From assembly GCA_964650005.1 (NCBI GenBank), contig CAZYPZ010000023.1, positions 6,288 to 70,287 of the forward strand: 64,000 nt of DNA, in the 5' to 3' direction. Below are positions 21,531 to 60,651 of the stretch, piece by piece. A program made the position numbers and the translations under genes. The notes beneath the pieces are model-generated. The model saw only the letters and a program-made list of their open reading frames with translations. It was not told the DNA's origin and did no database searches. Every line of letters starts with the position of its first letter. Within the stretch, counting starts at the first letter, position 1. Source of the stretch: an uncultured bacterium (lineage in GTDB: Bacteria; Armatimonadota; HRBIN16).

Positions 21531-21544
21531 GAGGAGGCTGCGCC

Positions 21545-23904: not shown

Positions 23905-24004
23905 TGGCGCTTCGGTTTTGGGTATGGCGTCATTACGCCCTCACACCGTACAATGTCACCGGGACGCGGTCGCCTGATCCGCGTCAGACGGGAGTGATGG
24001 CGCG

Positions 24005-25189: not shown

Positions 25190-25190
25190 C

Positions 25191-25763: not shown

Positions 25764-26377
25764 AGCGGCTTGCCGGTCTGTTCAATCCCCGGATGGAGCA
25801 GCGCGTGTTGGCGTTGCTTGTTGCCCTGATTGCATTGGGCGGCGCGGGGATTCTGTATGCGCAGATCATGCATCGAAACGCACTGATGGAACGGATGACC
25901 GAGATCGACAAGAAACTGGAGAGCTACCGCAGTGCGTCGGTGCAGTTGAAACACGCGCAGGACGAACTGCGTAACGCCCAAGACGAATTGCGTTTCTTGG
26001 AAAAATCGGTCAGTGAAAAGGCGTTTGTGCCCACGTTGCTAAAGCAGCTGGAAGACGCCGCCCGCAGGCACCAGTTGACGGTACAGTCCGTACGGCTCCA
26101 AACGCCGCCTGCACAGACCACGGCCGCACAATCCACCGAGGGAGATAAGACAGAGCAGAAGGAGTACGACGAACAGCCGATCGAGATATCGGTCAGTGGG
26201 CGGTACACGAACATCATGCAATTTCTGGACGGACTCAGCCGGTTTCCCAAGATCGTGGCCGTGGACCGCGTGCAGCTGCGTCCCAAGCCGCGTGATTACC
26301 GATATGACCCTGTTCAGTTGGATTTCACCATCAGTGTCACGGCGTTCATTTTCCGTAACCAGGGAGGCTCCCGGTGA
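25760..26377 (+). CDS. pilO: Type IV pilus assembly protein PilO
   Basis: N-terminal TM helix, coiled coil, and genomic position. Confidence 0.7.
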   Translation: MKRLAGLFNPRMEQRVLALLVALIALGGAGILYAQIMHRNALMERMTEIDKKLESYRSASVQLKHAQDELRNAQDELRFLEKSVSEKAFVPTLLKQLEDAARRHQLTVQSVRLQTPPAQTTAAQSTEGDKTEQKEYDEQPIEISVSGRYTNIMQFLDGLSRFPKIVAVDRVQLRPKPRDYRYDPVQLDFTISVTAFIFRNQGGSR

Positions 26378-26967
26378 ACGGCGACCCGAAACAACAGAAA
26401 CAGGTGCTTATTCTTTTGCTGCTGTTCGTTGCTTTGGGCGCGGTTGTCTACTTCAATATGTTCGCCGGTTCAGGTGGCCCGGAACCGGGAGTGAAGCCGA
26501 TTGCTCAGGTCGGCGCGACTCAGGATACCAATACGCCCGATGGACGGGTGATCACTCAAACAGGGCGCGGCCGGCGTGACCCGTTTCAGCCGCCAATGGC
26601 GTATGATGAGGTGGAACGCGAACGGCCTGTCGAGCCTCCGATCAGCCGCCCAAACCGGCCTGGACCCCGCAAGCATGTGTCGGTGAATAACATCGCACCG
26701 GCGCCCGGGTTGCCGGTATTGCCCCCGGCAACTGTGGTTCAGGCTGAGCCGTCCGAACCGCCTGCACTGCGTATTACGGGGGTGGTGCTGGGAGATCGTC
26801 CTCTGGCAATCGTTGCCTCGCCGGAAGGGGACAATCTGGTGGAGAAGGGACAGACGCTGGCCGGCGGATATCGGCTGGCCGAAATCCATGCCGATCGTGT
26901 TGTTGTGGTACGTGGAGGCCGGCGCTACGCCATACCTGTAGGAGGTCCTGACACCGATGACCGTTAA
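26374..26967 (+). CDS. pilP: Type IV pilus assembly protein PilP-like
   Basis: Pro-rich linker plus a C-terminal beta domain; lies between pilO and pilQ. Confidence 0.6.
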   Translation: MNGDPKQQKQVLILLLLFVALGAVVYFNMFAGSGGPEPGVKPIAQVGATQDTNTPDGRVITQTGRGRRDPFQPPMAYDEVERERPVEPPISRPNRPGPRKHVSVNNIAPAPGLPVLPPATVVQAEPSEPPALRITGVVLGDRPLAIVASPEGDNLVEKGQTLAGGYRLAEIHADRVVVVRGGRRYAIPVGGPDTDDR

Positions 26968-29323: not shown

Positions 29324-29332
29324 CAGGTTTAC

Positions 29333-31093: not shown

Positions 31094-31144
31094 GAACCGC
31101 CCGCACGGGAACATTACCGTTACACCGAATGGGAGTCCGTCGCC

Positions 31145-32359
31145 ATGTCTGATTTCGATCTGCTCGAACCGCTGTTCGACGAACCGGTTCCGTCGCGTAA
31201 GGCGACCCCTCAAAAGGGGCTGTCCGGCGATGACCTGTCGACAGTATCCGGGCTGACGTCCCACCACATCGATATGGCTTCGGTTCCTTTCAACCTCGAT
31301 GACTTGGACATTCATCAACTGCTTGGGCTTGTCCGCCAGTTTGGCGCGAGCGATATGCATCTGACTGCCGACTTGCCTCCGGTAATGCGTATCGATGGCG
31401 AGTTACATACCTTGCCATGCGATCTTTTGGACAGCAATCAGATCCAGCGGCTGGTTTACGAGGTGCTGACAGACGAGCAGATCTCTCAGTTCGAGCGTAA
31501 GAAGGAGTTGGACTTTTCGTTTGGAACGGCCGAACTGGGGCGCTTTCGGTTCAACCTCTACAAACAGCGCGGCGCTATCGGTGCGGCCATCCGGGCCATA
31601 CCGGCCAAGATCCCCACGTTCGAACAGTTGAACCTGCCTCCCGTGCTCAAAGAGCTGACCCGGCTTCAGAGCGGTCTGGTGCTGGTCACCGGTCCCACCG
31701 GTTCGGGCAAGTCCACCACGATAGCGGTGATGATCGACACGATCAACTCACTCTATTACAAGCACATCATGACGATCGAGGATCCGATCGAGTATGTGCA
31801 TAAGCATAAACGCGCCATGGTGAACCAGCGGGAGATCGGCAGCGACAGCGACAGCTTTCACGACTCCATTCGGGCGGTACTGCGGGAAGATCCCGATGTG
31901 ATCCTGCTGGGGGAGATGCGCGATCTGGAGACCATCCAGGCGGCGCTGACGCTGGCCGAAACCGGCCACCTGGTGTTTGGTACGCTTCACACACGCAGCG
32001 CCGCACAAACGGTGGACCGGATTATCGATGTGTTCTCGCCCGAGCAGCAGGAACAGATCCGGGTGCTGCTGGCCAACACGTTGCAGGCGATCATCACCCA
32101 GCAGCTGATGCCGGCCGTGGGGGGCGGCCGGGTGGGGGCGCTCGAAATCCTGCTGGTGACATCCGCCACGCGTAACTTGATCCGGGAAGGCAAGACGCAT
32201 CAGATCCCGACGGTCATCGAAACGGGCGGGAACCTCGGCATGCAATCCATGGATAAGGCGCTGGTCGAGCTTGTCCGCCAGGGACGGATCACACTGGATA
32301 TGGCCATGGAACGGGCGGCAGACAGGGACAATATTGTGCGTATCATGACCGCCATCTGA
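31145..32359 (+). CDS. pilT: Twitching motility retraction ATPase PilT with roughly 55-aa N-terminal extension
   Basis: LVLVTGPTGSGKSTT and GRVGALEIL motifs; 404 aa versus roughly 345 for a typical PilT. Confidence 0.85.
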   Translation: MSDFDLLEPLFDEPVPSRKATPQKGLSGDDLSTVSGLTSHHIDMASVPFNLDDLDIHQLLGLVRQFGASDMHLTADLPPVMRIDGELHTLPCDLLDSNQIQRLVYEVLTDEQISQFERKKELDFSFGTAELGRFRFNLYKQRGAIGAAIRAIPAKIPTFEQLNLPPVLKELTRLQSGLVLVTGPTGSGKSTTIAVMIDTINSLYYKHIMTIEDPIEYVHKHKRAMVNQREIGSDSDSFHDSIRAVLREDPDVILLGEMRDLETIQAALTLAETGHLVFGTLHTRSAAQTVDRIIDVFSPEQQEQIRVLLANTLQAIITQQLMPAVGGGRVGALEILLVTSATRNLIREGKTHQIPTVIETGGNLGMQSMDKALVELVRQGRITLDMAMERAADRDNIVRIMTAI

Positions 32360-32375
32360 CAGGAGCTGATATCCC

Positions 32376-33587
32376 GTGGCCAAGTATCCCTATCAGGCCG
32401 TTGACGGAAACGGACGCAACGTGCGCGGTGTGATCGAGGCGGAGACCCGCCTGGAGGCGCTGCAGGCGCTTCAGCAACAGCGCCTGTATGTGGTGAATCT
32501 GGGCGCGGCGCGTACCGGATCGTCATTGTTTTCGGTTGGCGGTGGAGGCGGGCGCATACGTCACGAGGATGTGCTGGCGTTTACGTGGCAATTCGCCACG
32601 ATGGTGGGTGCAGGTATTCCCTTGCTGAAGTGCCTGGACATCCTGAAAGGTCAAGCCAAAAATCAACGGTTCAAGGAAGCCATCGGCGCGATCAATCAGG
32701 ATGTGCAAAATGGAGCCACGCTGGCCGACTCGCTCGCACGCCACCCGGCCATCTTCAACCGATTGTACGTGAACATGGTGCGGGCGGCTGAAGTGGGCGG
32801 ATTGCTCGATCAGGTGCTGATCCGGATCGCGCAGTTCCTGGAAAACGATATGGAGATCCGGCAGAAGATCAAATCGGCCATGATGTATCCCATCCTGGTG
32901 CTCTGCTTTGCGGTGATCATGATGGCGGCGATGTTCAATGTTGTGCTGCCCCAGTTCAAGAGCATCTTCACGGGCATGAACATCGAGATGCCGACATTGA
33001 CGAAGATCATCTTCGCGGTCAGTGATCTTTCGGCGCAGTATTGGTATGTCCCGCCGGCCATTGTCATTGGGGTGGTGTTTACGCTGCGTGCGTTGGTGCG
33101 CACACCCAGCGGTCGCGTGCAGTATGACGCGATCAAACTCCGTGTTCCCATTGTGGGTGAGCTGGTGCTCAAGATGGCTGTCTCCCGTTTTTCCAGAACG
33201 CTGGGTGTATTGGTGGCGAGCGGAGTGCCCTTGGTGCGCTGTCTTGAAATCGTCGGTGAGACATCGGGGAATGCGATCATCGCCAATGCCTTGGACAAGG
33301 TTCGCGCCGGTGTGCTGGACGGGCAGCGGTTATCCATGCCGATGGCCGCCACCGGATTGTTTCCCAGCATGGTCGTGCATATGGTGGATGTCGGCGAAGA
33401 GAGCGGACAGCTCAGCGAAATGCTTGTCAAGGTGTCTGATTTCTTCGACAAAGAGGTCGACGCAGCAGTGAAAGGTCTGACCTCGATGATCGAGCCGGCG
33501 CTGATCATTCTGATGGGTGTGCTGGTCGGTATCATCGCGGTATCGATTATGGGGCCCATCTTCACATTGGCGGGCAGCATCAACTGA
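32376..33587 (+). CDS. pilC: Type IV pilus platform protein PilC (GspF family)
   Basis: Two GspF repeats with TM helices; GTG start behind AGGAG. Confidence 0.9.
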   Translation: MAKYPYQAVDGNGRNVRGVIEAETRLEALQALQQQRLYVVNLGAARTGSSLFSVGGGGGRIRHEDVLAFTWQFATMVGAGIPLLKCLDILKGQAKNQRFKEAIGAINQDVQNGATLADSLARHPAIFNRLYVNMVRAAEVGGLLDQVLIRIAQFLENDMEIRQKIKSAMMYPILVLCFAVIMMAAMFNVVLPQFKSIFTGMNIEMPTLTKIIFAVSDLSAQYWYVPPAIVIGVVFTLRALVRTPSGRVQYDAIKLRVPIVGELVLKMAVSRFSRTLGVLVASGVPLVRCLEIVGETSGNAIIANALDKVRAGVLDGQRLSMPMAATGLFPSMVVHMVDVGEESGQLSEMLVKVSDFFDKEVDAAVKGLTSMIEPALIILMGVLVGIIAVSIMGPIFTLAGSIN

Positions 33588-33666: not shown

Positions 33667-33713
33667 GCTGACATTCTGTCAGCGCATCGCTTTCGATTGC
33701 ATGTTAGTATAAT
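33667..33713 (+). promoter_or_regulatory. Perfect 17-bp palindrome GCTGACATTCTGTCAGC (candidate TetR operator) overlapping a promoter with TATAAT -10
   Basis: Palindrome at 33667..33683 and TATAAT at 33708..33713, 38 bp before the tetR ATG. The region is AT-rich. Confidence 0.45.
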
Positions 33714-33750: not shown

Positions 33751-34401
33751 ATGGACGACGCACATTATATGCCTGAAGAGCCGAAGTCACCGCCGCCGAG
33801 TACTCGGCCCAGCGCGCGCGAACGCATACTGCGGGCGGCTGAAGCCTTATTTGCCGAGCGTGGATTCGATCAGTCATCTGTCGGCGAAATCGCCTATCGC
33901 GCCGGCGTAAACCGTGCGCTGTTGTACTACTATTTTCGTCAAAAGGACGATATCTACCGGCAGATCATGATCGAGGGAATGAGCCTGTTGAGGCAGGTCA
34001 CCAGCAATGTGCTGGAGCCGGGAATGACTGTGCGCGAGGCGGTGGGGGCGTTCATCGACGCGTATCTGGATATGGCAAAAACACACCCCGGGCTGGTGCG
34101 GATTGTTTACAGAGAGATCGTAGGCGCCCAACATCAGGACAGCGAGTCCCGTGCATTTGTCGACGAGTTTGTCGGCACCATCTGGATGTTGCGCGCGGTG
34201 CTGGAGCGCGGTATTCAGGCGGGCGAGCTGGCGCCACATGACCCGATCAAGGGGGTCATCAGCCTGTTCGGATTGACCAATGTGTTCATAACCGTCGATT
34301 ATCTCGACGGCGCGAGCTTCTCCCGAGAAGAGGTACGCGACCACATCCTGCGTGTGTTTTTCGAGGGACTGGGAACGGCCAGGGACGGAGCCGGTTCATG
34401 A
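33751..34401 (+). CDS. TetR/AcrR family transcriptional regulator
   Basis: HTH region RERILRAAEALFAERGFDQSSVGEIAYRAGVNRALLYYYF. Confidence 0.85.
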   Translation: MDDAHYMPEEPKSPPPSTRPSARERILRAAEALFAERGFDQSSVGEIAYRAGVNRALLYYYFRQKDDIYRQIMIEGMSLLRQVTSNVLEPGMTVREAVGAFIDAYLDMAKTHPGLVRIVYREIVGAQHQDSESRAFVDEFVGTIWMLRAVLERGIQAGELAPHDPIKGVISLFGLTNVFITVDYLDGASFSREEVRDHILRVFFEGLGTARDGAGS

Positions 34402-35420
34402 AACCGGATTACACCCAGTTCGTACGCGTGCTGCAGCGAACCCGGCGTCCTGATCACCTGCCTCTTTATGAGCACATCGCCAGTCCCGGGTTCATCGCGC
34501 GGGCCACTCAGTCGGATTTCGATCGGCGGCCGCAAGACGAGACCTATTGGCGCATCTATGTTCAGTTTTGGATGGACATGGGGTTCGATGTCGTTCCGCT
34601 GGAGGTTCCCTTGAACCTGCCTGCGCCGGCTGCGCAGGCGGGAGAAAGCTTCGAGAGCGAGGCGTTTGTGGTCATTCGCAGCGCTGACGACTTCGACACG
34701 TATCCCTGGCCCGAGGAAGACAACGCACTGGATTTCAGCGTATTCGAGCGCGTGGCGAACCTGTTGCCCGATGGCGCCAAACTGGTTGCCGGGGTGTGCA
34801 TGGGCCCCTACGAACACGTCTCGCGCATGCTGGGAACGATCGGTTTGTCCTACTTGCTGGCGGATGATCCCGATCTGGTTCAAGCCATGTTTGACCGTAT
34901 CGGTCGGTTGATTGTCTCGGTGGATAAACGCCTGGCGGCGATGGATGCGGTGTGCGCCGTGCGGCAGGGCGACGATCTGGGCTTCAAGACCGCCACGTTC
35001 CTGTCGCCGGCTCAGTTGCGGCGATATGTGTTTCCGATATACGCTCGGCAGGTGCAGGCGGCCCACGATCAGGGTAAACCCTTCGTACTGCATTCCTGTG
35101 GTCAACTCAGCGCGGTGTATGACGATCTGATCGACTTCTGCAAGATCGATGCCAAGCACTCGTTCGAAGACCAGATCATGCCGCCTTATGAGTTCAAACG
35201 GCTATACGGCGACCGGGTGACGGCGTTGGGTGGTCTGGATGTGGACACGATCTGCCGTTCGGATGAGGTCCATCTGAGGGCTTATACGCGCCGAATGATC
35301 GAAGCGTGCTTTGCCGATGGCTGGTGGGCGCTGGGCACCGGCAACTCGTTGACAGATTACATGCCGGTTGAAAACTATCGGATTGTGCTTGACGAAGCGC
35401 AACGCGTGCTGAACGGTTAA
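34398..35420 (+). CDS. Uroporphyrinogen decarboxylase (URO-D) family protein, MtaA/CmuA-like methyltransferase candidate
   Basis: LSPAQLRRYVFPIY and HSCG motifs typical of URO-D-fold proteins. Overlaps the tetR stop (ATGA). Confidence 0.6.
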   Translation: MKPDYTQFVRVLQRTRRPDHLPLYEHIASPGFIARATQSDFDRRPQDETYWRIYVQFWMDMGFDVVPLEVPLNLPAPAAQAGESFESEAFVVIRSADDFDTYPWPEEDNALDFSVFERVANLLPDGAKLVAGVCMGPYEHVSRMLGTIGLSYLLADDPDLVQAMFDRIGRLIVSVDKRLAAMDAVCAVRQGDDLGFKTATFLSPAQLRRYVFPIYARQVQAAHDQGKPFVLHSCGQLSAVYDDLIDFCKIDAKHSFEDQIMPPYEFKRLYGDRVTALGGLDVDTICRSDEVHLRAYTRRMIEACFADGWWALGTGNSLTDYMPVENYRIVLDEAQRVLNG

Positions 35421-48320: not shown

Positions 48321-48851
48321 CTATTTGCGCGGAGCTCGTTTCGATGATGAGGGTGTGTTTGCGCGCGGTTTGGGTTTGCTGGATGACGGCGCGTTCACAG
48401 CGGGTTTTGAGGGCTTGACGTCTGCAGTCAACTGCTGCAACGAACGCTTCAGCGGTTGTACTCCGCTGTAACCGGACATGGTCAGCTTAGGCTGCACTTC
48501 GCCTTTGGCGTTGATGAACACCATATGAGGTATTCCCTCCACCTTATGCTGCTCTGCCAGTTTGCGCCCGTCCGCATCGGGTTCGCCCGTCAGGTCCACT
48601 TTCAGGAATACGGTCTTGCCAAGCAGATCGAGTACCGACTTGTCGGTCAGCGCCTCCTTTTTCAAAGAGCGGCAGGGTGGACACCAATCGGCCGTGAACA
48701 GCAGTACCACGGGCTTCTGCTGGGCCTTGGCGTCTTCGATGGCTTTCAACGTGGCGTTAGGTATCTCCGGGCCCTCTGCACGGGCGATCAGAGATGCGCC
48801 AAATAGCAGCGCCCCGACGAGGGCCATGACAGGCAGATGAATGGGTCTCAA
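48321..48851 (-). CDS. Secreted thioredoxin-family protein (TlpA/DsbE-like)
   Basis: Signal peptide, then WCPPC. TTG start behind GGAGGAG. Confidence 0.7.
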   Translation of the reverse strand: MRPIHLPVMALVGALLFGASLIARAEGPEIPNATLKAIEDAKAQQKPVVLLFTADWCPPCRSLKKEALTDKSVLDLLGKTVFLKVDLTGEPDADGRKLAEQHKVEGIPHMVFINAKGEVQPKLTMSGYSGVQPLKRSLQQLTADVKPSKPAVNAPSSSKPKPRANTPSSSKRAPRK

Positions 48852-51156: not shown

Positions 51157-51618
51157 TCACCGGTTGAGTTTCAAACCGCGCAGAACCTCGCTGAATGCGG
51201 AGCCGTCGAGATAGCTGTCCACAACCCCGCCGGGTATGTCCTTGCCGGAGCTGTCCTTGAACACCAGGGTGGGGAATCCGGTCACCCGGTACCGGTCCAC
51301 CAATTGCTGTTTATCCGGTGGCAACGGCTTATCGGTACAGTCGACCATCAGGATATCCGTATTCTGCAGCAACGAGACCACTCGTTTATCTGTCAACGTA
51401 TCCGACAGCATCATTTTGCAGTAACCGCACCATTCCGCGGTGAAGAACAGCATGACAGAGCGGTTGTTACGCACCGCCTGCTTTTCCCGTTCCGGAGTCC
51501 AGGTTTGTGGGGTCAGCGCATCGGTGCGCGTTTGCCAGTTGAGCATCAGAGCCAGCGCAACGCCGACCAACGTAAGCACCGCCAGCAGCGGCAGACTGGA
51601 TCGTTGATGTGGCCTCAT
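51157..51618 (-). CDS. Thioredoxin-like fold protein (membrane-anchored)
   Basis: WCGYC motif. Start chosen at MRPHQRSSLPLLAVLTLVGVALA. Confidence 0.6.
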   Translation of the reverse strand: MRPHQRSSLPLLAVLTLVGVALALMLNWQTRTDALTPQTWTPEREKQAVRNNRSVMLFFTAEWCGYCKMMLSDTLTDKRVVSLLQNTDILMVDCTDKPLPPDKQQLVDRYRVTGFPTLVFKDSSGKDIPGGVVDSYLDGSAFSEVLRGLKLNR

Positions 51619-51737
51619 GGTGATCCTCCCGCAAACGTGTCTCTGTGTCATGATATCCGACGAGCACGGCGCCTACCACAAGATAACCCGTTGCTGATGG
51701 GGTACCATGGGTTTATCGTCGCCATCAGGAGTACGCC

Positions 51738-51998
51738 ATGGCGCCCCGACAATGTCCCGGTCAGGATAGCCGATATTGGAAACCTGAAGACATCTACGAC
51801 GTGCCCTGTACCAACTGCGGCTTACCGATGGAGTTCTTCAAGACCGACCTGCGGCGAGCGTGCCCGCAGTGTGGCTCGCTCAATGTAAACCCCCGTAACG
51901 ATATGTCCTGCGCAGCGTGGTGCAAGTCGGCACCGGAGTGTCTGGCCCAACTGGGTATCGTGCTGACAGACGGTTCGGATCAGCAGTCATCCGGATAA
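51738..51998 (+). CDS. Small Cys-rich zinc-ribbon protein (86 aa)
   Basis: AGGAG RBS 6 nt upstream. CTNCG...CPQCG plus a C-terminal CAAWCKSAPEC cluster. Lies immediately upstream of the CODH/ACS cluster. Confidence 0.5.
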   Translation: MAPRQCPGQDSRYWKPEDIYDVPCTNCGLPMEFFKTDLRRACPQCGSLNVNPRNDMSCAAWCKSAPECLAQLGIVLTDGSDQQSSG

Positions 51999-52014
51999 TC
52001 GAACAGGCTATTTG

Positions 52015-52098
52015 TACCAGATGCCCTTACTCAAGTCATTCATCTACCAAATGTTGCGTAAACCATGTCGCTAAATGGTCGAATATTACCAAATGCCC
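52015..52098. promoter_or_regulatory. Three direct repeats TACCA(A/G)ATG(CCC) in an AT-rich region upstream of cooC
   Basis: TACCAGATGCCC at 52015..52026, TACCAAATG at 52045..52053 and TACCAAATGCCC at 52087..52098. The spacings of 30 and 42 bp keep the sites on the same helical face. Confidence 0.4.
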
Positions 52099-52217
52099 GC
52101 ACGAAATTACTAAGTCGATGCCGACGCGCTGGTCTGACAATATAGTGACATGCCGAGCGCTGCTTCCCGACAGCCGAGAAACATGCGCCCTCACGTCAGA
52201 TCGGCAAAGGATCGTGT

Positions 52218-53027
52218 ATGTCGCTCAAACTGGCTATCTCAGGCAAAGGCGGAGTCGGAAAGTCGACCGTCTGTGGAGTGCTCGCCCGCCTGTATGCAGC
52301 ATCCGGTCGACCTGTTCTGGCTATCGATGCCGACCCGGACGCTAACCTCGCCTCCGCGTTGGGCATGCCCGCAGAATTGCAGGCTTCCGTCCGCACCATC
52401 TCCGAACAGCGCCGCTTGGTCGAAGAGCGCACGGGCGCCAAGGCCAACCAGTACGGCCAAGTGTTCACCATCAACCCCGATGTGTCCGGTATTGCCGAAC
52501 AGTACGCAGTACGCCATGCCGGTGTGGATTTGCTGGTGCTGGGGGGGATCCCCAGTGCGGGCGGAGGGTGCAACTGTCCGGAGAGCGTGCTGCTGAAGTC
52601 GCTGGTACGGGAACTGGTACTGAAGCGCGATGACGTGGTGCTGCTGGACATGGAGGCGGGCATCGAGCACTTGGGGCGCGGCACGGCGATGGGAGTGGAT
52701 TTAATGCTGGCGGTTGTGGAACCCGGGCGACGCAGCGTGGATACCGCCGCACGCGTCCATCAGCTGTCTGCAGGCATCGGTATCCGTCAATTTGCCATTG
52801 TCGTCAACAAGGCCACCGATCCGGATGCTGACCGTCAATGGGTGTCAGACATGTATGGTGACGCGCCTATCTTGGGTGTCATACCGTATGATGCCCGCAT
52901 CGGAGAGGCTGACCGTACCGGCCGGTCGGTGGTGGATCTCAACGAACCGCCCCTGATCCAGCCATTTCAACAGATCTTGGAAGTCATCACCGAGCGTTAC
53001 GAGCGACACGATAGGAAACATTCATAA
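52218..53027 (+). CDS. cooC: CODH/ACS nickel-insertion accessory ATPase CooC (MinD family)
   Basis: LAISGKGGVGKST deviant Walker A and a CxC motif GGCNCPE; 269 aa. Confidence 0.85.
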   Translation: MSLKLAISGKGGVGKSTVCGVLARLYAASGRPVLAIDADPDANLASALGMPAELQASVRTISEQRRLVEERTGAKANQYGQVFTINPDVSGIAEQYAVRHAGVDLLVLGGIPSAGGGCNCPESVLLKSLVRELVLKRDDVVLLDMEAGIEHLGRGTAMGVDLMLAVVEPGRRSVDTAARVHQLSAGIGIRQFAIVVNKATDPDADRQWVSDMYGDAPILGVIPYDARIGEADRTGRSVVDLNEPPLIQPFQQILEVITERYERHDRKHS

Positions 53028-53052
53028 TATCGCCAATTCTGGAGGAGTGATC

Positions 53053-54102
53053 ATGGGTTTTGCACCGAAATGTCTGGCGACAGCCATAGGAAGTCTGCCC
53101 CACGCCGCTGCGGAGGATGCTGTCAATGTCGTTCTGGCCAGCATACCGTCTGCACCGATCTGGCCGCAGCTTCCAGCCAATGGAATGAACGAGCAGATGG
53201 AGATCCAGTATTCCGAAGGCATGCCTCGCGTGGTGATCGATCGTGAGAAGGAGCGCATGTACTTCGATACCTCCGGCGACTATTCCATGGATCTGGCTAC
53301 GTTCTATGAGAACTACATTGTGGAGAATTTCGATTATTTTCAGATCACGCCGGAGTTTTCCAAGGGTATCTACGCGCTCGAGTCGGTTTTACAGGCACAG
53401 GGCGGCAAAAGGCCGTTCGTGAAAGTGCAGACCACGGGACCGATGAGTTTCGGGTTGACCATCGTCGATGAAAACAAACGGGCGATCTTCTATAACCCGG
53501 AGTTTATCGATGTGGTGGTCAAGGCCCTGGCGATGAAGTGCCGCTGGCAGATCCGCAAGTTCCAGCCATATGCTGAACAGATCATCTGTTTCATCGACGA
53601 ACCGATCCTTTCCGCATTTGGCTCATCCACGTACGTCAGCGTCAGCCGTGATGATGTGGTGGCGAAGTTGAACGAAGTGGTCGAGGCGGTGCATGCCGAC
53701 GGCGCTCTGGCCGGAGTGCACTGCTGCGGCAATACCGAGTGGTCCATCTTGATAGACGCCGGCGTCGACATCGTCAACTTCGATGCGTTTGATTTCGGCG
53801 ATACCATCGCGTTGTACCCACAGGCGGTGAAGGCGCATCTGGAGGCCGGAAAGGTGCTGGCGTGGGGTGTGGTGCCCACCAACAGCGCCAAGATCCAGCA
53901 GCAGACTGTGGAGACGTTGATCGCCAAGTTCGATGAAGGCGTGGACAATCTGGCCAAGGCTGCCGGTATCAGCCGAGATCTGATCATCCAGCAGGCGATC
54001 ATCACGCCGTCCTGTGGTACAGGCTCGCTGCCGGTGCCCGATGCGGAACGGGTGTTCGATCTGCTGGGCCAGTTGAGTGCTGTTTTGCAGCAGAGACTGT
54101 AG
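53053..54102 (+). CDS. Single-domain MetE-like methyltransferase (core-MetE-like; cobalamin-independent methionine synthase catalytic-domain family)
   Basis: Strong GGAGGAG RBS. ICFIDEP (IQIDE-like) motif, VHCCG (H-x-C zinc ligands) and ITPSCGTG (SPDCGL-like Cys ligand). About 350 aa with no N-terminal MetE barrel. Confidence 0.6.
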   Translation: MGFAPKCLATAIGSLPHAAAEDAVNVVLASIPSAPIWPQLPANGMNEQMEIQYSEGMPRVVIDREKERMYFDTSGDYSMDLATFYENYIVENFDYFQITPEFSKGIYALESVLQAQGGKRPFVKVQTTGPMSFGLTIVDENKRAIFYNPEFIDVVVKALAMKCRWQIRKFQPYAEQIICFIDEPILSAFGSSTYVSVSRDDVVAKLNEVVEAVHADGALAGVHCCGNTEWSILIDAGVDIVNFDAFDFGDTIALYPQAVKAHLEAGKVLAWGVVPTNSAKIQQQTVETLIAKFDEGVDNLAKAAGISRDLIIQQAIITPSCGTGSLPVPDAERVFDLLGQLSAVLQQRL

Positions 54103-54973: not shown

Positions 54974-56926
54974 ATGCCGAACGAAACCAACAGACCGAAC
55001 CAGGCGTCTGTATCGCACGACCCCGCGATCAATACCCTGGTGGAGTTCGCGCAGGGAGAGGGAATCAATACCGTCTGGGATCGCTACCGGACACAGCAGC
55101 CGCAGTGCAAGTTCGGCGCCACCGGGGTGTGCTGTCGTCTGTGTCACATGGGCCCCTGTAGGATAACCCCCAAAGCGCCCAAAGGTATCTGCGGAGCGGA
55201 TGCCGACACCATTACCGCCCGGAATCTGCTGCGCGAGATCGCCGCTGGCACCGCCGCCCACTCCGACCATGGTCGCATGCTGGTGCGCACCCTGATGGGC
55301 GTGGCGCGTGGAGAGGGCGGGCCTTACAAGATCACCGATGCGCGCCGGTTGCGTGAGATGGCCGCGTTTTTCGATATCGAGACGGAAGGCCGTGACGACC
55401 TGGCGATTGCAGGCGACTTGGCCCAGTTCTGCATGGATCAGTTCGCGTGGTCGGAAGAGCCGAACAAAACGCTCAAACTGGCCCCGGAAAAACGGCAGGA
55501 GTTGTGGCGCAAGATGGAACTGGAGCCGCACGGCGTCGACTCCGCGGTAGTCGAGTTGATGCATCGCACGCACATGGGCGTGGATCACGACTATCGGCAC
55601 CTGATCAGCGGCGGGCTGCGTTGCAGTCTGGCGGACGGCTGGGTTGGCTCGATGATCGCCACCATGGTGTCCGATATCCTGTTCGGAACACCCAAACCGA
55701 TCCGCAGCCGGGTCAACCTGGGTGTGCTGGCCGAAGACAAGGTCAACATCATCGTCCATGGCCATGAACCGACGCTCTCCGAGATGCTGGCCACGGCTTC
55801 GATCGATGAGGAACTGCTGGCGTATGCACGCTCGAAGGGCGCCGCGGGCATCAATATCGCGGGTATCTGCTGTACCGCCAATGAGGTGCTGATGCGCCAT
55901 GGATTGCCCGTTGCAGGCAACTTCCTGCAGCAGGAACTGGCGATTATCACCGGCGCGGTCGAAATGATGATCGTGGATGTGCAGTGTGTGATGCCCTCTC
56001 TGCCCGAAGTGATGAAATGCTTCCACACCAAGCTGATCAGCACATCCGAAATCGCCCAGACGTTCAACGCCGAACAGATAACATTCGATGTGCAGGAGGG
56101 ATATGCCCATGCCTGCCGGCTGATCCGCATGGCGATCGACAACTTTGAGAACCGGGAAAGCAGCCGTGTGCGGATCCCGAACCAGTCGATGGAGCTGATC
56201 GCCGGATTCTCGAACGAGACCATCTTTCATATGTTGGGTGGCCGGTTCCGCAGCACGTTCCGCCCCTTGAACGATGCAATCATCGACGGACGCATCCGGG
56301 GGGTGGTGGGCATCGTGGGATGCAGCAACCCCAAAGTCCGCACGGATGACTCACACATCGCTTTGACTCGCGAACTGATCAAGAACAACGTGCTGGTGCT
56401 GCAGACCGGCTGCTCGGCGATCGCCTGCGCCAAAGAGGGGCTGCTGGTGCCGGAGGCGGCCCTGGAATGCGCCGGTGAGACGTTGCGGGAGGTATGCGAA
56501 GCGGTGGGTATTCCCCCGGTGCTGCACATGGGATCGTGTGTCGACAACAGCCGCATCCTGATGGCCGCCACCAACGTCATACGCGAAGGCGGACTGGGTG
56601 AGGATCTGTCAGATCTGCCGGCCGCAGGCGCCGCACCGGAATGGATGAGCGAGAAGGCGGTGGCGATTGGTCATTACTTCGTGGCCAGCGGTCTGTATGT
56701 CGTTTTGGGCCATCCGCTGTACGTGGAAGGCAGCGAAAACGTGACTCGGTTGCTGTGCGAGGAGATGACGGACATCACCGGCGGTCGTTTCGAGTGGGAG
56801 CCGGATCCGGTGGCCGCCGCGGGAAAGATCTTGGCGCACATCGAGGCAAAACGCGATGCGCTGGGTATTAACACCCGCAAGGAACGCAAGCTATATGACA
56901 TGAAGGAGCGGAGGGAACTGGCATGA
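54974..56926 (+). CDS. cooS: Anaerobic carbon-monoxide dehydrogenase catalytic subunit (CooS/AcsA)
   Basis: N-terminal CKFGATGVCCRLCHMGPCRI B/D-cluster motif and 650 aa. The TGA overlaps the acsB ATG in an ATGA arrangement. Confidence 0.9.
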   Translation: MPNETNRPNQASVSHDPAINTLVEFAQGEGINTVWDRYRTQQPQCKFGATGVCCRLCHMGPCRITPKAPKGICGADADTITARNLLREIAAGTAAHSDHGRMLVRTLMGVARGEGGPYKITDARRLREMAAFFDIETEGRDDLAIAGDLAQFCMDQFAWSEEPNKTLKLAPEKRQELWRKMELEPHGVDSAVVELMHRTHMGVDHDYRHLISGGLRCSLADGWVGSMIATMVSDILFGTPKPIRSRVNLGVLAEDKVNIIVHGHEPTLSEMLATASIDEELLAYARSKGAAGINIAGICCTANEVLMRHGLPVAGNFLQQELAIITGAVEMMIVDVQCVMPSLPEVMKCFHTKLISTSEIAQTFNAEQITFDVQEGYAHACRLIRMAIDNFENRESSRVRIPNQSMELIAGFSNETIFHMLGGRFRSTFRPLNDAIIDGRIRGVVGIVGCSNPKVRTDDSHIALTRELIKNNVLVLQTGCSAIACAKEGLLVPEAALECAGETLREVCEAVGIPPVLHMGSCVDNSRILMAATNVIREGGLGEDLSDLPAAGAAPEWMSEKAVAIGHYFVASGLYVVLGHPLYVEGSENVTRLLCEEMTDITGGRFEWEPDPVAAAGKILAHIEAKRDALGINTRKERKLYDMKERRELA

Positions 56927-59900
56927 GTAAAGTCATCGCTGCATCGGCGATCCGCGGAGCGCATCGGGTGGTCGCCGACGCCGAGGCCATGGTGTCAAAG
57001 GCGTTGGAAGCGCATGGCGAAGACTGCCCGGTCGGTTTCCCCGATACCGCATACGCGTTGCCGGTCATCAACTCCCTGCTGGGTATCGAGGTCAAAAAAC
57101 TGGGCGATATGCGCCCGGTGCTGGACGAGTGCCGCAGTCTGCTCACCACCGCGCCTGAAGACGATGTCTGGCTGCCGTACTTGGGTGCGACACTGGACGC
57201 CGGCATGGCCACATTGTTCGCCTTCGAGCTGATCGAAGCGATCAAGTATCTGGATGGGCCGCATCCCGTGAACGGCATATGGCTCGGCGCCGCCAGCGAT
57301 GTGATCATCCGGGAGCGCGGCATCGAGTTCGTGGACGGCTCCGCACCGGGATTCGCGGCGATTGTCGGCGCAGCTCCGGACAACGAGACCGCGGTGAAAA
57401 TCGCCCGGGAACTGCAGGAAAAGAACCTGTATGTGTTCATCGCCGGGGAGACCAATGGCGTATCGTTTGCCGAGCAGCTGGCTGAAGCCGGAGTGGAACT
57501 GGGCTGGGACACCCGGCTGGTGCCGTTCGGGAAAGACATCTCCGCGGTGATTTATGCGCTGGGGTTCGCCAACCGGGCGGCGCTGTCATTCGGCGGCGTC
57601 AAGCCGGGCGATTACTCACGCAATTTGAAATACAACAAGAACCGTATCTTCGCGTTCGTAATCGCGTTAGGCGAAGTCGACGAGGTGAAGTACGCCGCAG
57701 CCGCGGGTGCGATCTCGTACGGCTTTCCGACCATAGCAGATACGGCGATACCGCAGATTTTGCCGACGGGCATCTGTACTTACGAACATGTGGTCTCTTC
57801 GGTGCCGCATGACCGCATTGTGGAGAAGGCTCTCGAGGTCCGCGGTTGCAAGATCAAGATCACTAAGGTGCCCATTCCCGTGTCGTATGGCGCGGCGTTC
57901 GAAGGGGAACGGATTCGTAAAGAACAGACCTACGTGGAGTTCGGCGGGAACCGTACGCATGCGTTCGAGTATGTGTGCACGCGGGAAATATCCGAAGTGG
58001 AAGATGGCAAGATCACGGTCATCGGTCCCGAGATCGACGATGTGGAGGTCGGTTCATCACTGCCGTTGGCCATCTGGGTGGAAGTGGCCGGGCGCAAAAT
58101 GCAGCCCGATTTTGAGCCGATCCTGGAGCGCCAGATACATCACCTGATCAACGGCGCCGAGGGCGTATGGCACATGGGGCAGCGCGATATCATCTGGGTG
58201 CGCATCAGTAAAGGCGCGCAGGCCAAGGGGTTCAAGATACGTCACTTGGGTGAGATCATACGCGCCAAACTGTTGAGTGACTATCCCGCGATTGTCGACA
58301 AGGTGCAAGTGACGCTGTTCACAGACGCCGCCGAGGTGGAAACACGGCTGGCCGAAGCGCGGCGTGTGTACCGAGAGCGCAACCTGCGCGTGGAGTCTCT
58401 CACCGACGACAGTGTCGATACCTTTTACTCCTGTCTGCTGTGCCAAAGCTTTGCACCGAACCACGTATGCGTCATCACACCTGAACGACTGGGTTTATGT
58501 GGCGCGTATAACTGGCTGGACGGAAAAGCCGCGTACGAGATCGATCCGACAGGACCTAACCAGCCGCTGGTCAAGGGTGAATGCCTCGATCCGATCCGGG
58601 GGCAGTGGAAGAACATCAACGATTATGTCTATGTCAACTCCAAACAGACCATCAAGGCGTTCAATGCCTATTCGATGCTGAAGGATCCCATGACCAGCTG
58701 CGGCTGTTTCGAGGCGATTGTCGCGATGCTGCCGGAGTGCAACGGTGTGGCGATCGTCAACCGGGAGTACGGCGGCGACACGCCCATGGGCATGAAGTTT
58801 TCCACGCTGGCAGGGATTACGGGCGGCGGTCAGCAGACCCCCGGATTTATCGGTGTCGGCAAAGCGTATATCTCCAGCCGTAAGTTCATCTCGGCGGAGG
58901 GGGGCCACAAGCGGATCGTCTGGATGCCGGCGGAGTTGAAGCAGACGCTTCGGGAAGAGCTGATGCACATCGGTGAGCAGCTGGGGATACCCAACTACAT
59001 CGACATGATTGCGGATGAGCAGAACGCCGGCACCGATACGGCCTCGGTCATCGCGCACATGCAGAAGATGGGACATCCCGCTCTGGAGATGTGGGATATC
59101 ACGCAGTCGTCGCCGGAGCTGGCGGCATTTGACGCTCAGCGGGGTGTCGCCTTGGAAGAGTCCGCAGCTGCCAGCGCTCAGCCGGCGCCCGCGCCGAAGC
59201 CTGCTCAAGCGTCCGTACCGGAACCTGTCGCGGAAACGCCTGCGCCGACTGCGGCAGTCTCCTCCGAGCCGACTTCAGCCGTCAGTGAGTCTGCGCCGGC
59301 AAGTGTTGTCACCAACGCTCCTAGCGCTCCGGTCGCTCCGTTGCAGACACAGGGCATCGACTATGTGATGTCGGTACTGGACCGGATGCGCAGTCAGGGA
59401 TTGCCGACTGCCGGTCCGGATGCGTCCCCCGAACAGCAGCTGGCGGCGTTACAGGCATCCACCGCACTGAACCTGTTGACCGCGGGCGCGAACATGCTGT
59501 TGATGTACAGCGGATTGCTGGGCGCCATACCCGCGACGCCCGTAACCCCTGTGTCCACCCCTGCCTCTGCGCCGCCGGAACCCGCCGCGCCGGCCGAGCC
59601 TGTGACGCAGTCAGTGCAGGCTCCAGCTCCTCCGGCAGTCGAGGCGCCGCCTCCGGTACGTCCGGTGACTTCTGCGCTGATCGTCACGCCGACCACGGTC
59701 CCCACCTACAGTGACGCTTCCGCCATGGCGGTGCGCACGGTGACATTGGGAGGGAGCGGCACGCGCACCTCTGCGGTCACCATCGGCGGTGCCGAGGTAA
59801 TGCCGTTCCGCCACTATGAGGGGAACGCGGGACATCGCCCGGTGATCGCCATGGAGGTGTTCGACCAGCTGCCCAGAAACTATCCGGACAGCCTGAGAGA

Positions 59901-60651
59901 CGCGTATGGACAGCTGTTGGACGATCCCGCGGCCATGGCCAAGTACTGCGTGGAGCAGCTCAAAGCGGAAGTCATCAGCGTGCGGCTGGAAAGCGCTCAT
60001 CCGGACCAAGGGGATGCATCGCCTGCGGCCTGTGTGGACTTCATCCGCCAGATCATGCAGGCGGTGGGGGTGCCCATTATCGTCACCGGCCCGGCGCATT
60101 ACGAGAAATGCAACGCGGTGATGAAGGAGGTGGCCAGCCAGTTCGCCGGTGAGAACCTGTTGCTGAACTGGGTGGAGACCGACAACTACAAAACAATTGT
60201 CGCCGCCGCCATGGCGTATAATCACTGCGTCGTCACACAGACTCCGATCGACGTGAATATGGCCAAGCAGCTCAACATCCTGTGTACCAACATGGGGCTG
60301 GCGCCGGACAAGATCGTGATCGATGCGTTGACCGGGGCCTTGGGATATGGTCTGGAGTATACCTACTCGGTGATGGAGCGCATCCGTTCTTCTGTGTTCA
60401 CCGGTGATGCGATGCTGGCCATGCCAATGCTGGTGACGCCGGGGTATGAGGTGGCGAAGATCAAGGAGAGCAAAGCGCCGGCAAGTGCTTTCCCGCTGTG
60501 GGGGCCTGAGTCCGAGCGCGGCGCACTGCTGGAAATCGCCACTGCAATGAGTCTGCTGAATGCCGGTGCGGATCTGCTGGTGATGTACCACCCGACGGCG
60601 GCGCGTACGGTGGGACAGAAGATCGCCGATATGACCCGGGTAGCTGGGTGA
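56923..60651 (+). CDS. acsB: Acetyl-CoA synthase beta subunit (AcsB/CdhC) fused via an Ala/Pro-rich linker to the corrinoid Fe-S protein small subunit (AcsD/CdhD)
   Basis: GFPDTAYALPVI (matches AcsB GYPDTAYYLPVI). A-cluster ligands CLLCQSF...C...C and SCGCFE. Residues roughly 745-905 are Ala/Pro-rich. The C-terminal roughly 330 aa match AcsD (LGGSGTRTSAVTIGGAEVMPFRHYEG, AGENLLLNWVETDNYK, SVMERIR). Confidence 0.85.
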   Translation: MSKVIAASAIRGAHRVVADAEAMVSKALEAHGEDCPVGFPDTAYALPVINSLLGIEVKKLGDMRPVLDECRSLLTTAPEDDVWLPYLGATLDAGMATLFAFELIEAIKYLDGPHPVNGIWLGAASDVIIRERGIEFVDGSAPGFAAIVGAAPDNETAVKIARELQEKNLYVFIAGETNGVSFAEQLAEAGVELGWDTRLVPFGKDISAVIYALGFANRAALSFGGVKPGDYSRNLKYNKNRIFAFVIALGEVDEVKYAAAAGAISYGFPTIADTAIPQILPTGICTYEHVVSSVPHDRIVEKALEVRGCKIKITKVPIPVSYGAAFEGERIRKEQTYVEFGGNRTHAFEYVCTREISEVEDGKITVIGPEIDDVEVGSSLPLAIWVEVAGRKMQPDFEPILERQIHHLINGAEGVWHMGQRDIIWVRISKGAQAKGFKIRHLGEIIRAKLLSDYPAIVDKVQVTLFTDAAEVETRLAEARRVYRERNLRVESLTDDSVDTFYSCLLCQSFAPNHVCVITPERLGLCGAYNWLDGKAAYEIDPTGPNQPLVKGECLDPIRGQWKNINDYVYVNSKQTIKAFNAYSMLKDPMTSCGCFEAIVAMLPECNGVAIVNREYGGDTPMGMKFSTLAGITGGGQQTPGFIGVGKAYISSRKFISAEGGHKRIVWMPAELKQTLREELMHIGEQLGIPNYIDMIADEQNAGTDTASVIAHMQKMGHPALEMWDITQSSPELAAFDAQRGVALEESAAASAQPAPAPKPAQASVPEPVAETPAPTAAVSSEPTSAVSESAPASVVTNAPSAPVAPLQTQGIDYVMSVLDRMRSQGLPTAGPDASPEQQLAALQASTALNLLTAGANMLLMYSGLLGAIPATPVTPVSTPASAPPEPAAPAEPVTQSVQAPAPPAVEAPPPVRPVTSALIVTPTTVPTYSDASAMAVRTVTLGGSGTRTSAVTIGGAEVMPFRHYEGNAGHRPVIAMEVFDQLPRNYPDSLRDAYGQLLDDPAAMAKYCVEQLKAEVISVRLESAHPDQGDASPAACVDFIRQIMQAVGVPIIVTGPAHYEKCNAVMKEVASQFAGENLLLNWVETDNYKTIVAAAMAYNHCVVTQTPIDVNMAKQLNILCTNMGLAPDKIVIDALTGALGYGLEYTYSVMERIRSSVFTGDAMLAMPMLVTPGYEVAKIKESKAPASAFPLWGPESERGALLEIATAMSLLNAGADLLVMYHPTAARTVGQKIADMTRVAG

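Follow-up and report, generated by a model that had tools for sequence, protein, structure and literature searches.

Direct repeats upstream of cooC most likely belong to a conserved set of protein-binding sites in front of a CODH/ACS operon

What do three short direct repeats do in front of the CODH/ACS genes of an uncultured bacterium? The repeats lie in a 219-nt spacer within a 64-kb stretch of DNA (hereafter, the window), and an earlier note, made from the letters of that stretch, took the spacer for an AT-rich region in which a transcription factor binds at several sites. The operon context is confirmed: the array of repeats before cooC lies downstream of a Zn-ribbon ORF, and the spacer is followed by cooC, a 351-aa ORF, a second cooC/acsF-like ATPase gene and the genes for CODH, an ACS–CdhD fusion, the CFeSP large subunit and RACo. 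The features from which the question starts are these:

51738–51998, + strand: Zn-ribbon gene (86 aa, 8 Cys), upstream of the array.
52015–52026, + strand: repeat 1, TACCAGATGCCC; its TACCAGA is the 3′ box alone of the clade unit defined below.
52045–52053, + strand: repeat 2, TACCAAATG followed by ttg; a copy of the 3′ box only.
52087–52098, + strand: repeat 3, TACCAAATGCCC, within a block that is invariant in four lineages.
52218–53027, + strand: cooC (Ni-insertion ATPase), with a Pfam CbiA/ParA-type P-loop domain; first gene of the CODH/ACS cluster.

All three claimed copies of TACCARATG are present, at 52015, 52045 and 52087 on the + strand, and their start-to-start spacings of 30 and 42 nt are borne out by the sequence. 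Over both strands of the 64 kb the 9-mer matches exactly three times, all within 81 nt; from shuffles, 0.47 matches would be expected over the full 64 kb, and three were reached in a single shuffle of 100. As a look-elsewhere control, we allowed any 9-mer and counted triplets on the same strand with at most one mismatch in each pairwise comparison. Such a triplet was held by 7 of 2,000 dinucleotide shuffles of the 219-nt spacer, making a chance origin unlikely (~0.4%), although this figure alone is not overwhelming. The longer 12-mer, with up to two mismatches, is not enriched across the window (10 found, 7.65 expected). The AT-richness is real but modest, with a GC fraction of 0.493 for 51999–52217 and 0.436 for 52000–52100, compared with 0.604 for the window and 0.50–0.61 for its other intergenic stretches. 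The proposed phasing of all sites on one face of the helix fared less well: 42 bp corresponds to 4.0 turns but 30 bp to 2.86, so the phasing is approximate only, and the spacing is not conserved in relatives, in which the units follow one another in steps of 18, 21 or 22 nt.

Related loci (designated L082, L085 and so on) define the element to which the repeats belong. Useful relatives came from a protein search and contig look-ups, with cooC 55–80% identical and several of them labelled Armatimonadota; CooC searches of genome and metagenome contigs returned mostly relatives of at most 65% identity (Acidobacteriota and others) without the motif. The source records name the cooC homologues ‘CO dehydrogenase maturation factor’, and gene order is syntenic in L082, L085, L087, L088, L090, L092, L175 and L176. 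A motif family recurs ahead of the orthologous operon in nine or more lineages (ten groups of loci with the window's own); its unit is non-palindromic, asymmetric and 14–17 nt long, reading CGCAC(G/C)A-N-ATTACCA(R)A in the syntenic relatives and also GCAC(S)ANATTACCA. Its ungapped footprint over five lineages, GCAC.A.AtT.CcA, comprises 14 contiguous conserved positions without dyad symmetry, and the centres of the GCAC and TACCA boxes lie ~9.5–10 nt apart, about one helical turn. The binding motif proposed earlier, TACCARATG(CCC), contains the real 3′ box of this unit, but the unit itself is longer and the trailing TG(CCC) is unconserved.

To the three repeats the following sites are added, with scores from a matrix built from nine units of three relatives (L092, L175 and L176), the window being excluded:

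52098–52114, + strand: full canonical unit, CGCACGAAATTACTAAG, adjoining repeat 3, with its GCAC box at 52099–52102 and its TAC-A box at 52108–52112; the strongest predicted regulator site of the window.
52075–52093, + strand: ATGGTC-N6-TACCAAA, a partial unit overlapping repeat 3 (7.0 bits), with its TAC-A box at 52087–52091.
51674–51707, + strand: weak TACCA copies at 51674 (CTACCACAAG) and 51703 (GTACCATGG), upstream of the Zn-ribbon gene.

First, the full unit is specific to these promoter regions. At 21.6 bits it is the single strong match of the window, the runner-up in the 64 kb reaching 13.9 bits, and it is identical in L082. GCACSANATTRCYA has its sole window match at the same place and, among 178 loci, occurs only upstream of cooC. 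Across 1.63 Mb of retrieved loci, scores of at least 18 bits are found only upstream of this clade's cooC or Zn-ribbon genes, L108 included, a lineage of ~70% GC whose cooC is only 55% identical. The list of sites in the earlier note, right in its three repeats, had passed over this best copy and the invariant ATGGTC at 52075–52080.

Second, the partial unit is invariant where its surroundings are not. Read as a 17-mer (52077–52093), it matches the clade unit at positions 7–17 (A.ATTACCAAA), with GGTC replacing the GCAC box. ATGGTC-N6-TACCA (52075–52091) is kept unchanged and at the same spacing in the window, L082, L085/L086 and L087, window-clade lineages in which cooC is 75–89% identical to the window's and the sequence surrounding the invariant blocks varies. 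The segment also contains TGGT-N8-ACCA (52076–52091), the window's only inverted repeat of this kind. We do not favour it as a true palindromic operator: it has 4 + 4 bp, its count is at chance level, and the palindromic reading is disfavoured because the left arm falls where the direct unit has its GCAC box.

Third, the TACCA box has a strand preference. In the window's two regulatory spacers TACCA occurs five times on the + strand and not once on the − strand, with 0.14 expected per strand, and the copies at 51674 and 51703 count as weak sites only tentatively, since their matrix scores do not exceed 4.6 bits. The regulatory spacers of 11 loci together hold 22 on the + strand versus 5 on the − strand, with 2.4 expected per strand, counts that are not independent events because the lineages are related.

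The three repeats themselves fare unequally in this comparison. Repeat 1 scores 6.3 bits with the matrix, in another register, and as a 17-mer (52005–52021) would be centred ~−140 from the putative transcription start; in L082, whose cooC is 89% identical, it is degraded to TACTAGTTCCGT with the ATTTGTAC flank retained. Repeat 2 scores less than 3 bits with the clade matrix, and CTACCAAATGYTGCGT, which is repeat 2 with its flank, forms an island kept between the window and L082 whose surroundings have diverged. Neither repeat was found in the aligned spacers of L085 or L087. The contribution of repeats 1 and 2 is uncertain, given their low clade-matrix scores and conservation at most in the nearest relative. 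It is conceivable, though unlikely, that repeats 1–3 are functionless products of chance or decayed duplication and that only 52098–52114 and ATGGTC...TACCA matter. Those low scores, the losses in relatives and the 7 of 2,000 shuffles that yield some 9-mer triplet would agree with such an origin, as would a likeness, read by eye, between 52015–52039 and 52087–52111 (17 of 25 positions), which points to an old duplication. It fits poorly with the conserved island around repeat 2, with the position of repeat 3 inside a block invariant across four lineages, with the extra upstream units that relatives have at similar places (for example in L085 at 3647, 13.9 bits) and with the strong over-representation of TACCA on one strand in all these spacers.

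The units stand in a regular relation to a candidate promoter and ribosome-binding site:

52141–52146, + strand: TATAGT, the putative −10 hexamer, invariant in all four close lineages.
52206–52211, + strand: AAAGGA, the likely cooC ribosome-binding site; AAGG-T is kept 7–8 nt before the ATG in four aligned lineages.

TATAGT lies exactly 66 nt downstream of the start of ATGGTC in all four close lineages. We infer from it a cooC transcription start near 52153 and a 5′ leader of ~65 nt; every position relative to +1 given here derives from −10-like hexamers. No −35 match stands 17 nt upstream of TATAGT, where the sequence is ATGCCG, and a promoter scanner requiring both hexamers found no promoter in the cooC spacer. 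On this numbering the full unit of the window clade would be centred near −47 and the partial unit near −68, both forward. The − strand at 52133–52149, which covers TATAGT, scores 9.1 bits. That TATAGT is part of an inverted unit is a minor possibility, the L085 equivalent having no match of at least 3 bits and the L087 equivalent none of at least 8 bits.

A fixed geometry also marks the five lineages L092, L175, L176, L088 and L090 (cooC 67–80% identical to each other), which keep the copies at fixed positions with diverged inter-unit spacers. Unit offsets are 0/18/61 nt (the steps in L090 being 19/42), L092 has a weak extra unit at ~39, and overall there are 3–4 direct copies at 0/18/~39/61. 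In all five, a TAnnAT-type −10-like hexamer follows 19–20 nt after the last unit, with no −35 match. Starts placed from these hexamers would centre the units near −101/−83/(−63)/−40, the last unit being forward at −40/−41 in each lineage. L173 and L174 have two units on the opposite strand, centred at ~−78/−61, and these precede a full TTGATA-17-TAGAAT sigma-70-type promoter, which the scanner also detects in L173. The array does not always stand next to cooC. The Zn-ribbon gene is the first operon gene in some relatives, with the unit array upstream of it: L088 and L090 have it directly against cooC, with the 0/18/61 array ahead of the Zn-ribbon gene, and a single strong unit precedes that gene in L085 (20.0 bits) and in L087 (19.2 bits).

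Such arrangements bear on whether the repeats might act in RNA. Read-through from a Zn-ribbon promoter would yield transcripts whose UACCA repeats are recognized by an RNA-binding protein or make up a leader that governs translation of cooC or transcript processing. In favour of it, most lineages have every copy in the coding orientation (22 versus 5), a terminator-like site is missing after the Zn-ribbon gene, and L088 and L090, where cooC stands next to that gene and surely shares its transcript, make read-through across the window spacer plausible. We nevertheless consider an RNA role very unlikely, and rejected it on Rfam, folding and unit orientation. The Rfam search gave nothing relevant, its only hit being a chance microRNA match inside cooC (E = 0.13), and shuffled sequences fold better than the repeat region (z = +1.04; other fold z-scores, −0.17 and −1.59). 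In L088 and L090 the array stands before the first operon gene, 19 nt from the −10-like hexamer and 45 nt from the start codon, and in L176 it begins ~20 nt past the G+C-rich hairpin that ends the upstream gene, too close for a promoter to fit in between. Finally, the units of L173 and L174 are on the other strand, and reversal within one subclade argues for an element that works at the level of DNA.

Pfam hits (CbiA, ParA, AAA_31) place CooC in the ParA/MinD P-loop superfamily, and partition loci carry direct-repeat arrays beside parA. Even so, there is next to no likelihood that the repeats form a centromere-like or iteron site for the neighbouring ParA/MinD-type ATPase, or are left over from a mobile element. 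The neighbouring gene encodes an orthologue of CooC and sits within a full CODH/ACS cluster of syntenic order, ParB-like genes are missing, and the array keeps a fixed distance to the −10-like hexamer and the start codon. With no copies elsewhere in the 64 kb, the array is not a dispersed repeat.

The comparative evidence, with the unit upstream of the orthologous operon across these lineages, thus supports the suggestion of a multi-site transcription-factor array controlling the operon, whose unit, best site and phasing had been misjudged. Judged from the sequences compared, the repeats most likely belong to a conserved protein-binding set that would switch on the CODH/ACS genes.

Which protein might bind there? 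No regulator gene of any family lies beside the operon in the window or in any relative locus retrieved. One RACo relative on a 3.9-kb contig is followed by a homocysteine-S-methyltransferase-domain gene and no regulator. The sole regulator gene of the 64-kb window encodes a TetR protein, 18 kb from the operon (33751–34401); it has its own, unrelated palindrome, GCTGACAttcTGTCAGC, with no TACCA nearby, and was set aside. The Zn-ribbon protein was also rejected as the DNA binder: it is acidic (pI 4.81) with 8 Cys and no family or structure match, its gene stands beside cooC in phyla that have no motif, and it is absent beside the array in L175 and L108.

Several known kinds of site were compared with the unit. 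In Acidobacteriota, a dedicated GntR/FadR (FCD) regulator gene lies directly upstream of the orthologous cooC (~64% identical), in the place held here by the Zn-ribbon gene, but the upstream motif of those GntR/FCD–cooC loci is TCATATGATATGA, with no GCAC...TACCA units, and we rejected a GntR regulator for the window. The GntR/FadR operator is TGGT-N3-ACCA; the window has a spacing of N8, not N3, and no GntR gene, and this operator was likewise discarded. Sigma-54 promoters have a single copy of TGGCAC-N5-TTGC (GG-N10-GC) with invariant doublets. The units, CGCAC...TTACCA, lack the GG, have TTAC for TTGC, are off by one in spacing and come in 3–4 tandem copies, so that a sigma-54 promoter was dismissed. 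CooA and CRP sites are two-fold symmetric, as in TGTCA-N6-CGACA of Rhodospirillum rubrum. As with CooA, a Ni-CODH operon would be controlled from a site that precedes a weak promoter, but the unit here is asymmetric and arranged head to tail, and no symmetric site of ~16 bp (5-6-5) was found. The only inverted repeat is TGGT-N8-ACCA, with its 4-bp arms and chance frequency.

The earlier note had argued from the absence of a CooA- or RcoM-type palindrome to a regulator that may be of a different type. RcoM-type operators are not palindromes but sets of three direct repeats that recur every ~20–21 bp (PMC11347149), so a missing palindrome does not exclude the RcoM class; the motif and spacing of RcoM/CoxC sites are nonetheless unmatched here. 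In that class, repeats of 8–9 bp with the LytTR motif TTCNNGCA/TTNNNGCN are separated by non-conserved spacers of 12–13 bp and lie upstream of the −35 box in RcoM1 but overlap it in CoxC (PMC11347149). RcoM1 and CoxC resemble the present case in having direct-repeat triplets of ~20-bp period at the −35 region of a CO dehydrogenase operon and in what would be a single dedicated local regulator, and differ in that theirs is the aerobic Mo–Cu CODH (cox), whereas here it is the anaerobic Ni-CODH/ACS.

The array might thus be the operator of a LytTR-domain, CO-responsive protein of the RcoM/CoxC type, either an activator (RcoM-like) or a repressor relieved by CO (CoxC-like). We regard this as quite unlikely. 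The 3–4 direct repeats in 18/21/22-nt steps, the last at the −35 region in five relatives and all before a CO dehydrogenase operon, would suit such a protein, and the 5′ box read on the opposite strand, T-S-GTGCG, is a loose fit to TTNNNGCN. However, 14 contiguous positions are conserved in the unit and the first two units are merely 4 nt apart. The initial T of TTNNNGCN coincides with the unit's one variable position, TTCNNGCA is absent on the + strand, and the − strand shares only T...GC, ~3 fixed bases, which puts the match near chance. No LytTR gene was present in any locus examined, and the inverted copies at ~−61/−78 before a complete promoter (L173/L174) fit AraC class I better.

AraC/XylS proteins read non-palindromic sites with a dual helix–turn–helix, as in the marbox consensus gcactaattgctaaa (PMC5684230). 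For MarA, SoxS and Rob, class II promoters have a forward site near −41 and no −35 element, and class I promoters have a reverse site at −53 to −73 and a good −35 element (PMC10268841). The clade unit is similar in being non-palindromic and in its length of ~15 bp, with one helical turn between its two boxes, and it shares its entire 5′ half, GCACnAAnT, with gcactaattgctaaa. Its 3′ box, TTACCA, differs from the GCTAAA or TGCTAAA of the marbox, so the clade unit is not a marbox but at most the site of another family member. Placement in the relatives would also follow the MarA pattern, with starts taken from the hexamers: forward at ~−40 without a −35 element, and reverse at ~−61 with a good one. 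The window clade departs from it, −47 and −68 being both forward and neither an exact class position. A further difference is that the units here form arrays of 3–4 copies in fixed 18/21/22-nt steps. MarA-type monomers usually bind one site, and multi-site arrays are more like those of the dimeric AraC, XylS and MelR. The phylum and the controlled operon (Wood–Ljungdahl) are other ones as well, and no gene of the AraC family or with a dual AraC helix–turn–helix was found in the 64-kb window or the retrieved flanks.

On balance, we think it probable that the spacer is an operator array for one dedicated activator of the CODH/ACS (Wood–Ljungdahl) operon, with AraC/XylS-like site logic. The factor would bind the full unit at 52098–52114 with high affinity, and the partial units (52077–52093 and repeats 1 and 2) cooperatively or more weakly, and would recruit RNA polymerase to a promoter without a −35 element. 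Given a promoter that is poor by itself and such recruitment of polymerase, the factor would act as an activator. It would belong to the AraC/XylS family, of MarA type, reading an asymmetric two-box site whose position and orientation relative to the promoter would follow the class I/class II pattern. The factor may instead be a repressor, since 3–4 direct repeats in ~20-bp steps up to the −35 region resemble LytTR operators, including that of the repressor CoxC. The signal may be CO, redox state, nickel or a C1 substrate. We give little credence to a further reading, in which the operator serves an undescribed CO-, redox- or nickel-sensing regulator that is neither AraC- nor LytTR-like, a lineage-specific master switch of the Wood–Ljungdahl pathway in anaerobic Armatimonadota-like bacteria that perhaps works with the 8-Cys Zn-ribbon protein.

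To our knowledge, very little is known about the regulation of CODH/ACS operons beyond a few Firmicutes, Proteobacteria and archaea, and a literature search found nothing on it in Armatimonadota. The array represents a useful but ordinary class of regulatory element and no new mechanism. Within one clade, the promoter has been remodelled, with the unit forward over the −35 region in some lineages, reversed before a full promoter in others and in a third arrangement in the window lineage. The comparison yields a precise conserved operator, with a 14–17-nt unit, the positions of its copies and a putative promoter. This unit offers a concrete handle for finding the regulator and a marker that may predict when uncultured anaerobes switch the pathway on.

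The 219-nt spacer before cooC contains three TACCARATG repeats on the same strand, with starts 30 and 42 nt apart:

51738–51998, + strand: 86-aa, 8-Cys Zn-ribbon ORF, 5′ of the spacer
52015, + strand: repeat 1, TACCAGATGCCC, from sequence reading
52045, + strand: repeat 2, TACCAAATG, from sequence reading
52087, + strand: repeat 3, TACCAAATGCCC, from sequence reading
52218–53027, + strand: cooC, first gene 3′ of the spacer

These are the only matches on either strand of the 64-kb window, against 0.47 expected, and they lie, as an earlier note had described, in an AT-rich spacer, with a GC content of 49.3% (43.6% over the first 100 nt) versus 60.4% for the window and 50–61% for other intergenic stretches. 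A comparable 9-mer triplet, with any word allowed, arose in 7 of 2000 shuffles of the spacer; by itself, the triplet is suggestive rather than compelling.

Three distant relatives (L092, L175 and L176; cooC 65–67% identical to that of the window and 78–80% among themselves) each carry, 5′ of cooC, three copies of a longer unit, CGCAC(G/C)A-N-ATTACCA, at offsets of exactly 0, 18 and 61 nt, with a fourth, weak unit at around 39 in L092. In L088 and L090, the Zn-ribbon gene abuts cooC and an array of weaker units in the same layout (steps of 19 and 42 nt in L090) precedes the Zn-ribbon gene, and so the operon's first gene. Compared without gaps, the five arrays show GCAC.A.AtT.CcA in three successive blocks, with unconserved sequence between them. 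On the coding strand of the regulatory spacers of 11 loci, TACCA occurs 22 times versus 2.4 expected, and 5 times on the other strand.

A 17-nt matrix built from the nine units of L092, L175 and L176, with the window left out, has a single strong match in the 64 kb: CGCACGAAATTACTAAG at 52098–52114 (21.6 bits; runner-up 13.9 bits), directly 3′ of repeat 3. In the fetched loci, 1.63 Mb in all, no score of 18 bits or more falls outside the regions 5′ of cooC or the Zn-ribbon gene in this clade; L108, from a ~70% GC lineage, is also among these loci, and L085 and L087 have one strong unit each 5′ of the Zn-ribbon gene (20.0 and 19.2 bits). The exact degenerate pattern has no occurrence elsewhere in the window or fetched loci. 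Repeat 3 sits within a partial unit (52077–52093) that matches unit positions 7–17, with GGTC replacing GCAC; repeats 1 and 2 have only TACCA(R)A in common with the unit in the matrix comparison. The earlier proposal of a regulator-binding array before the operon was right in kind, but the element is bigger than then described and needs another definition, and the full unit at 52098–52114, the best site, had been missed; the helical phasing attributed to the repeats is not a conserved feature.

A protein search returned CooC homologues of 89, 80 and 76% identity and, below these, many of 65–69%, several labelled Armatimonadota. Close-relative contigs share the order Zn-ribbon gene, spacer, cooC, 350-aa ORF, ATPase, CODH and ACS fusion. 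In the spacer alignment, two blocks are invariant in all four lineages: ATGGTC-N6-TACCA (52075–52091, including repeat 3) and TATAGT (52141–52146), the latter exactly 66 nt 3′ of the ATGGTC start and ~77 nt 5′ of the cooC ATG. Between the window and its nearest relative, L082, the stretch that begins with the AAATGGTC block at 52072 and runs up to the cooC ATG is ~90% identical, repeat 2 and its flank form a conserved island amid diverged sequence, and repeat 1 is partly lost (TACTAGTTCCGT in L082). The inferred cooC 5′ leader (52148–52217) is ~93% identical to that of L082 and is not conserved in L085 and L087.

Each of the five array lineages has a TAnnAT-type hexamer (TATTAT, TAGGAT, TAAACT, TACAAT or TAAGAT) 19–20 nt 3′ of the last unit, with no TTGACA-like −35 element 17 nt 5′ of it; judged from the hexamer, unit centres would fall at about −101, −83, (−63) and −40. 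In another subclade (L173, L174), the conserved block consists of two minus-strand units centred at about −78 and −61, preceding a complete predicted promoter: TTGATA-17-TAGAAT in L173, also called by a promoter scanner, and TTGCCC-17-TACAAT in L174. Taking TATAGT as the −10 element of the window clade would place the full unit at about −47, the partial unit at about −68, and repeats 2 and 1 at about −110 and −140; the putative window promoter has no −35 element, with ATGCCG at that position.

An Rfam search found nothing relevant, and shuffled sequence folds better than the repeat region (z = +1.04). Together with the placement of the arrays (5′ of the first gene in L088 and L090, and beginning ~20 nt past a G+C-rich hairpin in L176) and their inversion in L173 and L174, this favours a predicted protein-binding element acting at the DNA level; the Rfam result, the fold and the inversion led us to reject an RNA element. 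The fold of the inferred leader is likewise ordinary (z = −0.17). With no terminator found, transcription may read through from the Zn-ribbon gene over the window spacer.

The ~15-bp unit lacks symmetry, and its two boxes are one helical turn from each other, a shape characteristic of proteins that contact DNA through two helix-turn-helix motifs in a single chain. It has GCACnAAnT in common with the marbox consensus, gcactaattgctaaa (PMC5684230), whereas the 3′ box differs, and on that box the marbox sequence test of an AraC/XylS-like assignment fails. By the published rules for MarA/SoxS/Rob (PMC10268841), a class II site points forward near −41 on a promoter that has lost its −35 element, and a class I site is reversed, lies at −53 to −73 and goes with a good −35 element; with the starts assumed here, unit placement in the relatives would mirror both rules, whereas the window clade follows neither. 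From unit shape, the marbox-like 5′ part and this placement, the most likely binder would be an AraC/XylS-like activator, proposed by analogy rather than as a claim of membership; no AraC/XylS-type gene was seen in the window or fetched loci, and no regulator gene lies beside the CODH/ACS operon in the window. An RcoM/CoxC-type LytTR regulator is the chief alternative: operators of that class are likewise direct-repeat triplets near a −35 element (PMC11347149), but their 8-bp motif with free 12–13-bp spacers has no match in the array. Other candidates were rejected: CooA, for which a two-fold symmetric site is expected and the units are asymmetric direct repeats; GntR, given TGGT-N8-ACCA rather than N3 spacing and no GntR gene in the window; sigma-54, given no GG doublet, TTAC rather than TTGC, and 3–4 tandem copies; and a partition site, as cooC is an orthologue in a syntenic CODH/ACS cluster with no ParB-like gene. 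In six Acidobacteriota relatives (L003, L007, L009, L010, L013 and L037), a GntR/FadR-type (FCD) gene at ~7100–8000 runs up to, or into, the start of cooC, which is another way of regulating the same operon; L009, L010 and L013 have a TCATATGATATGA-like sequence just 5′ of this regulator gene.

Downstream of cooC lie a 351-aa ORF, a second CooC/AcsF-type ATPase, CODH, a 1242-aa ACS–CdhD fusion, the CFeSP large subunit and RACo; on a 3.9-kb contig, a homocysteine-S-methyltransferase-domain gene comes after RACo. The fusion (56923–60651, +) joins CODH_A_N, CdhC, the ACS C-terminal domain and CdhD, a small CFeSP subunit-like domain, and is found in every syntenic relative (1193–1233 aa). The 351-aa ORF (53047–54102, +), between the two CooC-type ATPases and conserved in every relative, has no Pfam match and only a faint methionine synthase likeness (NCBIfam PRK00957, E = 1e-6), and possibly encodes a methyltransferase that replaces AcsE. 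The Zn-ribbon protein is acidic (pI 4.81), 75–95 aa long, with eight conserved Cys (CPGQD...PC..CG...DDLRR.CP.CG...NP.ND..CAAWCK...ECL), and is encoded directly 5′ of cooC in the window and in L014, L019, L024, L062, L114, L122 and L139; the pairing occurs in several phyla (Armatimonadota-like, Lentisphaerae, Aminicenantes and others). Neither Pfam nor NCBIfam has a family for the protein, PDB offers no relative, and its public names are inconsistent guesses; it may serve CODH/ACS maturation as an accessory or metal-handling factor not yet recognised. An inverted repeat, GGGGTACCATGG / CCATGGCGCCCC, surrounds the start of the Zn-ribbon gene in the window (51699–51747) and contains the palindrome TACCATGG, 35 nt 5′ of the ATG; L092 has TTACCATGGTAA ~40 nt 5′ of cooC. 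In L014 (7501–7620 and 7880–8000) and L024 (7690–7760), tandem repeats of the GAACCAAGAAC type and their inverse occur in runs flanking the Zn-ribbon gene, just 5′ of cooC. Thioredoxin-like (DsbH/Thioredoxin_7) paralogues (48321–48851, −; 51157–51651, −) lie either side of a GH3 glycosidase gene; the second of them and the Zn-ribbon gene are divergently oriented.

The window otherwise holds housekeeping genes, a complete type IV pilus/type II secretion-like cluster (19967–33587, +; pseudopilins, PilM/N/O, secretin, two ATPases and PilC) and a single TetR regulator gene. This TetR-family gene and the URO-D/MtaA-like methyltransferase gene 3′ of it (together 33751–35420, +) are preceded by a perfect palindrome of their own, GCTGACAttcTGTCAGC (33668–33684), and a TATAAT hexamer, apparently forming a small regulatory unit apart from the array. 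In L092, too, a URO-D gene adjoins the CODH/ACS operon.

The array belongs to a known kind of regulatory system; what is new here is a conserved, predicted operator for the Wood–Ljungdahl operon of an uncultured clade.
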